In this document: positions 30,554-30,999 of the stretch, one piece after another
How positions within the stretch are numbered: the first letter of the stretch is position 1
How the letters are laid out: every line of letters begins with the position of its first letter
Source of the DNA: Pseudomonas phage HHBS47_1
Length of the DNA stretch: 64,000 nucleotides
Reading direction: 5' to 3' (one strand)
Sequence record: PQ287649.1
The notes under the pieces: model-generated
Told to the model about the DNA's origin: nothing
The model's database searches: none
The model's input: only the letters and a program-made list of their open reading frames with translations
Translations under genes and position numbers: made by a program

Positions 30554-30999
30554 GTTTTAACACGTTGACCGTATTATATACGGACAACATGTCGTTTTAA
30601 TCCGCGTCTGCGGGTCCCGCCTGAACTTAAGGGTGATAAGGTGTGGTACTCGTCGAGTATGAGCTTGGCAAAGCTCATACTCCGAACCCTATGGACGGTA
30701 TAGCCGCTATCGTCAAGTCACACTGTTCAGCTATTGACCTGGACTTCAGTCTCCTTTTCGGTGCTGTCGGCGGGAAGGTTGTCGGACGGTGGGGCGGCTT
30801 GTGAAGGTGCTAAACTAGCGCTGGTTGAACGCCTAGCAAGTTAAGGGGAGGAGGGACAGTCATCGGCTCTAAGCGGGTGGGTTCCTCCTCCCCTCGCTCC
30901 TTTTATTTTTTGTCTTAATGCCGTGTTACTCGACCGGTTTCTAACGGATACAGGCAGTGCGAATATTATGTCTTATCCCTGACTTACCAAGAGGTTATA
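30554..30999 (+). ncRNA. candidate structured non-coding RNA locus (about 300-350 nt transcript ending at the terminator at 30845-30912)
   Basis: About 440 bp with no ORF of 60 aa or more on either strand in an otherwise gene-dense genome. Internal hairpins (for example cgagtatgagcttggcaaagctcatactc at 30651-30680). Strong terminator at its 3' end. Confidence 0.35.
30845..30912 (+). terminator. strong intrinsic terminator
   Basis: 10-bp GC stem ggggaggagg...cctcctcccc followed by tcgctccttttattttttg. Confidence 0.7.

Follow-up and report, generated by a model that had tools for sequence, protein, structure and literature searches.

Small RNAs derived from 3'UTRs are well described in enterobacteria. 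CpxQ and DapZ, for example, are 60-100 nt long, bind Hfq, carry a short conserved seed and share the intrinsic terminator of their mRNA. Large structured RNAs associated with phages, such as GOLLD and ROOL, are also known, and the tRNA region of phage T4 encodes stable small RNAs. In lytic Pseudomonas jumbo phages, small RNAs were found by ONT-cappable-seq or dRNA-seq, for instance sRNA005 of 201phi2-1 and 'sRNAgp182' of phiKZ and EL (PMC11512511). These RNAs are shorter than 250 nt and mostly derived from 5'UTRs, and the conserved one is located upstream of a tail gene and shared across genera (PMC11512511). One small RNA has been reported for EL, upstream of the homologue of phiKZ gp182 (PMC11512511).

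In this study, we analysed the gap between the homologues of EL genes gp101 and gp102 in a 64,000-nucleotide stretch of phage DNA (the window). Like the jumbo-phage small RNAs, the locus is a candidate non-coding intergenic or UTR-associated RNA of a Chimalliviridae phage, bounded by a putative phage terminator. Unlike them, it lies at another place (gp101-gp102), is longer (~290-350 nt), belongs to the 3' end of an operon and occurs in EL-like phages only. It resembles CpxQ and DapZ in that it immediately follows a same-strand stop codon, ends at the predicted operon terminator and has no evident separate consensus promoter, but its conserved part is 244 nt long and neither seed nor target was found. 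As with GOLLD, ROOL and the T4 small RNAs, it is a candidate non-coding RNA carried by a large lytic phage; however, it is shorter than GOLLD and ROOL and has no Rfam match, and the nearest tRNA gene is 4 kb upstream rather than adjacent as in T4. Our literature search returned no paper on the gp101-gp102 locus and no EL transcriptome, and the reviews found mention only the non-coding RNAs of phiKZ. The locus is plausibly a lineage-specific non-coding RNA or 3'UTR element, a candidate of a known kind. The reading we prefer, with a probability of about 0.5, is that it is a functional non-coding segment of the plus strand, specific to the EL lineage, which would serve as a long structured 3'UTR of gp98-gp101 or give rise to an RNA processed from it.

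To place the window phage, we searched with region 29400-32000, which matched eight records of EL-group Pseudomonas phages at 95-97% identity, the reference EL (NC_007623) among them. The phage is an EL-like Pseudomonas jumbo phage (Elvirus); EL itself is a member of the Chimalliviridae, the phiKZ-like, nucleus-forming jumbo phages. One of the EL-like records, MIZ-Pa99 (PV472050), is filed under Straboviridae, yet it is 97% identical to EL. The features of the locus and its surroundings are as follows.

30308-30553, plus strand: gp101 homologue of 81 aa, from the ORF list and the EL annotation (PPEV_gp101); its stop is the 5' border of the locus
30560-30592, plus strand: imperfect hairpin H1, arms 30560-30574 and 30578-30592 (87% complementary), followed by CGTTTTAAT
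30601-30844, plus strand: conserved ORF-free core of 244 nt, with low variability and a consensus fold
30600-30615, 30618-30635, 30650-30685 (holding the perfect 12-bp hairpin), 30694-30714, 30717-30795 and 30796-30842: predicted core helices
30655-30666 and 30671-30682: inverted repeat in the core, forming the perfect 12-bp hairpin
30844-30911, plus strand: terminator-like element, arms 30844-30857 and 30881-30894 (93% complementary)
30913-31002, plus strand: spacer upstream of gp102, with the invariant AATATTATGTC (TATG at 30967-30970) and, at 30989-30994, the AAGAGG ribosome-binding site of gp102
31003-31482, plus strand: gp102 homologue of 158 aa, from the ORF list; its ATG at 31003 is the 3' border of the locus
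31552-34554, minus strand: portal gene gp103, converging on gp102

The neighbouring genes up to gp102 are all encoded on the plus strand, and the gp101 homologue is the last gene of the block gp98-gp101. It matches phrog_26983 (unknown function), and close homologues of gp101 and gp102 were found in EL-like phages only. The gap between the gp101 stop and the gp102 ATG (30554-31002, 449 bp) is the largest intergenic gap in ~49 kb of the EL annotation when the corrected gp102 start is used. Its longest ORFs are 53, 36 and 34 aa, and a stretch of 382 bp (30591-30972) is free of ORFs of at least 60 aa on both strands, the longest such stretch in the window except one at the window end. These observations bear out the original prediction of an ORF-free locus. 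Its picture of genes that overlap or lie tens of bp apart is only roughly true, as EL has other intergenic gaps of 186-444 bp.

About 450 bp of the window (28772-29223), located between gp99 and gp100 and ~1.3 kb upstream of the locus, are absent from EL and coincide with an extra CDS of 165 aa in GXNNE2, indicating a small accessory gene that is present or absent among EL-like phages. The motif (C)TTGGGCGGTGCG recurs in three coding regions (24977-25011, 30191-30225 and 62044-62078), one of which is gp100 (with a weak DUF4774 match); this recurrence suggests a family of paralogous small proteins. Elsewhere in the window, a 444-bp gap of the EL annotation (EL record L007, 8751-9194; window ~8391-8834) is free of ORFs of at least 60 aa only at 8391-8518 and then continues as an ATG-initiated frame (ATGCATTACCAAGTGG...), so that a gene is probably missing from the EL annotation here.

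To characterize the gap across the group, we gathered 20 copies of the locus (17 distinct), using phage records in GenBank as well as assemblies available through Logan, ENA and NCBI. All 20 EL-like copies keep the gap, and all are at least 94% identical. The T-tract ranges from 6 to 12 T among the copies, phiRU carries a 1-nt insertion at 30824, and 7 of the 9 SNPs in the 53-aa ORF fall on first or second codon positions. The peptides of the small ORFs in the gap had no match in Pfam or PHROGs, and tblastn with the small proteins of the equivalent interval in relatives found no trace of them in the locus. Since there is no ORF of at least 60 aa, no family match and no third-position bias of the SNPs, and the indels are not multiples of three, it is well supported that the locus is non-coding. 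The proposal of a decayed gene found no support in the same tblastn, Pfam and PHROG searches. An intact gene at this place in related phages, which the original prediction had named as a refuting result, was also looked for, and none of them carries one.

The locus is not annotated as an RNA element in the records examined. In RefSeq, the start of EL gp102 is annotated at 106935, inside the terminator hairpin (window 30877-31002 corresponds to NC_007623 106935-107063). Because the length of the T-tract differs between genomes and changes the frame, the N-terminal extension annotated in this way is not real. Neither the ATG at 31003 nor its AAGAGG ribosome-binding site varies, and the RefSeq start of EL gp102 should move to this conserved ATG. 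Spurious CDSs of 34-36 aa are annotated inside the gap in MIZ-Pa99 and vB_PQ1. The record of vB_PQ1 (PQ516283) also shows repeated insertions of ~77 bp, a portal gene split into at least 5 annotated CDSs and annotated 'CRISPR' repeat features, which indicates that the assembly is probably faulty.

To search for RNA families, we ran the Rfam scan that had been suggested with the original prediction. At the gathering threshold, none of the 4227 models of Rfam 15 (riboswitches, ribozymes, introns and Pseudomonas small RNAs among them) matched the locus, and the only hit in the window was a tRNA at 26590-26662. A permissive scan of 30300-31200 with E up to 10 returned noise only (10.8-17.1 bits against thresholds of 49-83 bits). 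ARAGORN found no tRNA or tmRNA in the locus; its sole hit in the window was a tRNA-Thr(CGU) at 26590-26665. A group I or group II intron was rejected, as no intron model rose above noise, gp101 and gp102 are distinct genes, the former with a stop and the latter with a start of its own, and the gp102-like gene of relatives has no gp101-like part joined to it.

Searches with blastn and nhmmer found no homologue of the locus outside the EL group, and exact-pattern scanning of IMG/VR, of metagenomes from JGI and of genomes from GTDB retrieved only EL itself. The locus is missing from Joad, BUCTxx100, OBP and two ~230-kb metagenomic contigs, relatives at 36-67% portal identity, among them those at 57-67%. 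Their equivalent interval, from the RNA polymerase genes to the portal gene, is shorter and packed with small genes, and nhmmer of the locus against these intervals gave nothing. The locus therefore belongs to an EL-specific accessory block. In the two metagenomic contigs (L016 13142-13693 and L017 13003-13560, 66-67% portal identity), we observed a portal-adjacent protein of 183-185 aa that shares 31-40% identity over 51-53 aa with the C-terminus of gp102. This distant homologue beside the portal gene indicates that gp102 is older than the EL-specific block upstream of it.

To assess the structure of the locus, we compared its folding with that of shuffled sequences. On either strand, the complete region is more stable than its shuffles (z = -4.0 and -4.1), mostly due to the terminal hairpins, with a minimum free energy (MFE) of -164.7 kcal/mol on the plus strand and -139.8 on the minus strand. 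For the core alone, the MFE z-score is -2.2 (plus) and -1.9 (minus), a modest gain in stability that is similar for the two strands. The RNAalifold consensus contains 115 pairs in 13 helices, and 18 of the 115 are G-U pairs, which would be A-C mismatches on the minus strand. Covariation was examined among the EL-like copies. In this set, which is 97% identical, two of the 115 pairs are changed on both sides (30662/30675 and 30728/30781), a count that is not significant, as 32 of 500 shuffles reach it; slid controls gave 0. The first pair changes from A-U to G-C in one assembly. The second is G-C in 8 sequences, C-C in 5 and C-G in 4, never G-G, so that a G at 30781 occurs only together with a C at 30728.

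Changes on one side of a pair are kept as G-U wobble on the plus strand at 30569, 30680, 30831 and 30860, and they keep a standard pair at 30730 and 30877. Four changes break predicted pairs, and variants disrupt the long-range helix predicted to close the structure. In an unbiased single-sequence fold, variable sites were not enriched at unpaired positions (p = 0.33). Taken together, the structural support for an RNA of the locus is only suggestive and leans toward the plus strand. The structured non-coding RNA first proposed thus holds as regards its non-coding nature and a plausible terminator, while the two covarying pairs and the core z-score of -2.2 are no more than suggestive of structure.

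Furthermore, we evaluated the sequence constraint on the core. In eight genomes, 13 of its 244 sites are variable (5.3%), compared to 104 of 592 four-fold degenerate sites (17.6%) taken from gp99, gp100, gp101, gp102 and the portal gene; the Fisher test (OR 0.26, p = 1e-6) overstates the difference, since diversity is patchy block by block in these mosaic genomes, and block-level resampling gives p ~0.05-0.17 instead. This patchiness extends into gp101, where 30300-30399 has zero variable sites. Between EL and the window, the core diverges by 2.0%, compared to 7.4-9.7% for the adjacent terminator and spacer. Intergenic DNA of EL changes slowly as a whole (2.8% divergence against 6.8% at four-fold sites in the same genome pair), and the core is therefore not exceptional among EL intergenic regions. 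It is probably under purifying selection, no more than is typical of signal-dense EL intergenic sequence. At the 3' end of gp101 (30517-30546), the EL-like phages carry two haplotypes that differ at ~13 of 30 positions up to the stop codon; beside a nearly invariant non-coding core, this looks like recombination mosaicism.

These data also bear on a second reading, which we consider possible though rather unlikely. The locus would be a neutral leftover of a lost orphan gene or an insertion next to an ordinary terminator, its conservation would reflect close sampling and a recent shared genealogy, and only the hairpin and T-tract would be functional, ending the gp98-gp101 operon. The location in an accessory region absent from relatives is in line with this, as are the identity of at least 94% among the copies, the patchy diversity (17% of 250-bp blocks are without four-fold divergence between EL and the window) and the weak covariation and fold z-score of the core. 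However, at four-fold sites the flanking genes are three to four times more variable than the core, and the adjoining terminator top and spacer diverge 3.5-5 times more than it in the same genome pair. A leftover of a gene is also at odds with the lack of any trace of a protein family or of a relatives' gene, and neutrality with the two compensated pairs, one of which has its G at 30781 only with C at 30728.

In the preferred reading, a functional plus-strand segment, transcription would end at the last hairpin of the locus. The locus contains three strong inverted repeats, which agrees with the several stable hairpins originally described. Hairpin H1 is located directly after the gp101 stop, but variants break its inner stem (CC to CG or TG) and turn its T-run into ATATT, and it does not vary significantly less than four-fold sites do. 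H1 is thus at best a weak, non-conserved terminator. The terminal hairpin has a stem of 13-14 bp (GGGGAGGAGGGAC / GTTCCTCCTCCCC) with a structured top of 23 nt (a mini-hairpin), a folding energy of -37.9 kcal/mol and a z-score of -4.9. On the plus strand, it is followed by a 6-nt spacer (CGCTCC) and a T-tract, TTTTATTTTTT at 30901-30911 (T4AT6), and the changes in its top are wobble-compatible on the same strand. The stable hairpin and T-tract of the original prediction are therefore present, but the stem is longer than the 10 bp given there and the top and spacer come in addition.

Like canonical intrinsic (Rho-independent) terminators, the element combines a stable GC-rich stem with a T-rich tract downstream of it in the transcribed strand. 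It departs from them in its 23-nt structured top, where a loop of 3-8 nt is usual, and in the 6-nt spacer in place of an immediate U-tract; these two features explain why a consensus terminator scan missed it. Purine-rich and pyrimidine-rich arms with a spaced, weak T-run are common to other EL intergenic terminators, and we consider it plausible that the locus ends in a predicted intrinsic terminator of this EL style. At other EL operon ends, the hairpin lies within tens of nt of the stop codon, whereas here ~290 nt of conserved non-coding sequence precede it.

To find out where transcription could start, we searched for promoter motifs. The locus lacks the EL early-promoter motif ATTTTAAACCTASATTAT, of which the window has three copies, at 14242, at 27252 (upstream of gp98) and at 56417. 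This indicates that the locus would be transcribed by read-through from gp101, unless it has a promoter that cannot be recognised by sequence. GTATTATATAC, considered in this context as well, is not repeated. A sigma-70 scan gave one match on the minus strand (30600-30573), which is within chance expectation and probably of no relevance, given that phages of the phiKZ type rely on RNA polymerases of their own.

Downstream of the terminator, AATATTATGTC is invariant in 10 genomes, and a similar TTTTATGTGC is located upstream of the EL major head gene. The late promoter consensus of phiKZ is T(-3)ATG(+1) (PMC7598289). Further TATG copies occur in the locus at 30658-30661 and 30690-30693, the four-base motif being unspecific. 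With its TATG and ribosome-binding site, the spacer is probably gp102's own predicted promoter and translation start region.

This organization reduces the likelihood of a regulatory leader or attenuator for gp102, which was among the options first raised and which we regard as improbable. Here, the core would sense a signal or bind a factor, and a conditional terminator would control read-through into gp102. The order of structured RNA, terminator and same-strand gene does resemble riboswitch and attenuator layouts, and, as read from the sequence, an alternative structure might form between UCUCCUUUU (30753-30761) and the terminator's 5' arm. But the locus belongs to no known aptamer family, even at E up to 10, and the terminator is located 91 nt upstream of the ATG, with the invariant TATG motif and the ribosome-binding site in between. 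In relatives, moreover, the gp102-like gene lies 10-20 nt from its upstream neighbour and is leaderless.

An equally improbable alternative is an element acting in DNA (a replication origin, packaging site or protein-binding site, with the inverted repeats working in double-stranded or extruded form): equal folding of both strands relative to shuffles, conservation without coding and the nearby portal gene speak for it, but there are no iterons, tandem repeats or AT-rich unwinding region in the locus, its GC content (55-58%) exceeds the local average (~49%) with no inflection of the GC skew, public records are not linearised here, and after several substitutions a pair survives only as a plus-strand G-U. 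At another place in the window, 7362-7710 (EL record L007, 7719-8067), we observed an intergenic region of 349 bp that contains short, iteron-like repeats (TTTTGATCTTTCT ... TTTAGATCTTTCTTTTGAT) and adjoins a CCCCCGAAAAAAAGGGGGG hairpin. This region could be a replication origin or regulatory region.

For the functional plus-strand segment, transcription, its strand and its end are inferred, and so is any effect on further molecules. Transcription would begin in the gp98-gp101 block, or at an internal start that escapes recognition, and the transcript would cross ~290 nt of conserved, moderately structured RNA before stopping at the predicted EL-style terminator (30844-30911). The product would be a long structured 3'UTR or a processed RNA of ~220-350 nt. 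The terminator may also shield gp102 from upstream transcription, with gp102 relying on its own predicted TATG-type promoter and ribosome-binding site.

A more far-reaching proposal, which we judge unlikely, is that this is a new Elvirus-specific RNA of ~220-350 nt whose action, in a nucleus-forming jumbo phage, would be on other molecules. Such an RNA might be a decoy or sponge for an RNA-binding protein (of host or phage) or for a defence sensor, or an element affecting the fate of transcripts that leave the phage nucleus, and it would have arrived along with the EL-specific block of accessory genes by the portal gene. A crude search for targets, in which duplexes with 129 translation start regions of the window were folded, scored no better than shuffled RNAs, and no seed was found. 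An RsmA/CsrA sponge was rejected, as GGA motifs are not enriched (~8, counted by eye, against ~6 expected from composition). The hairpin GACGGUAUAGCCGCUAUCGUC shares only the GUAUAG core with what we take to be the type I-F CRISPR repeat of P. aeruginosa, and we judged this to be chance. An 8-nt complementarity between 30652-30659 and 30927-30934 is also at about the chance level. No second copy of the locus was found in the window or in any phage record.

This element is limited to one genus and supported by indirect evidence, and general understanding would stay unchanged unless a function is found. Nevertheless, little of the RNA biology of nucleus-forming jumbo phages has been explored, and the transcriptome papers on phiKZ and 201phi2-1 report few small RNAs, none with a known function. 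PMC12571901 describes antisense-oligomer knock-down for jumbo phages. The 244-nt core, kept by all EL-like phages, small and bounded by defined signals, would be a concrete and easily testable candidate for such RNA biology.
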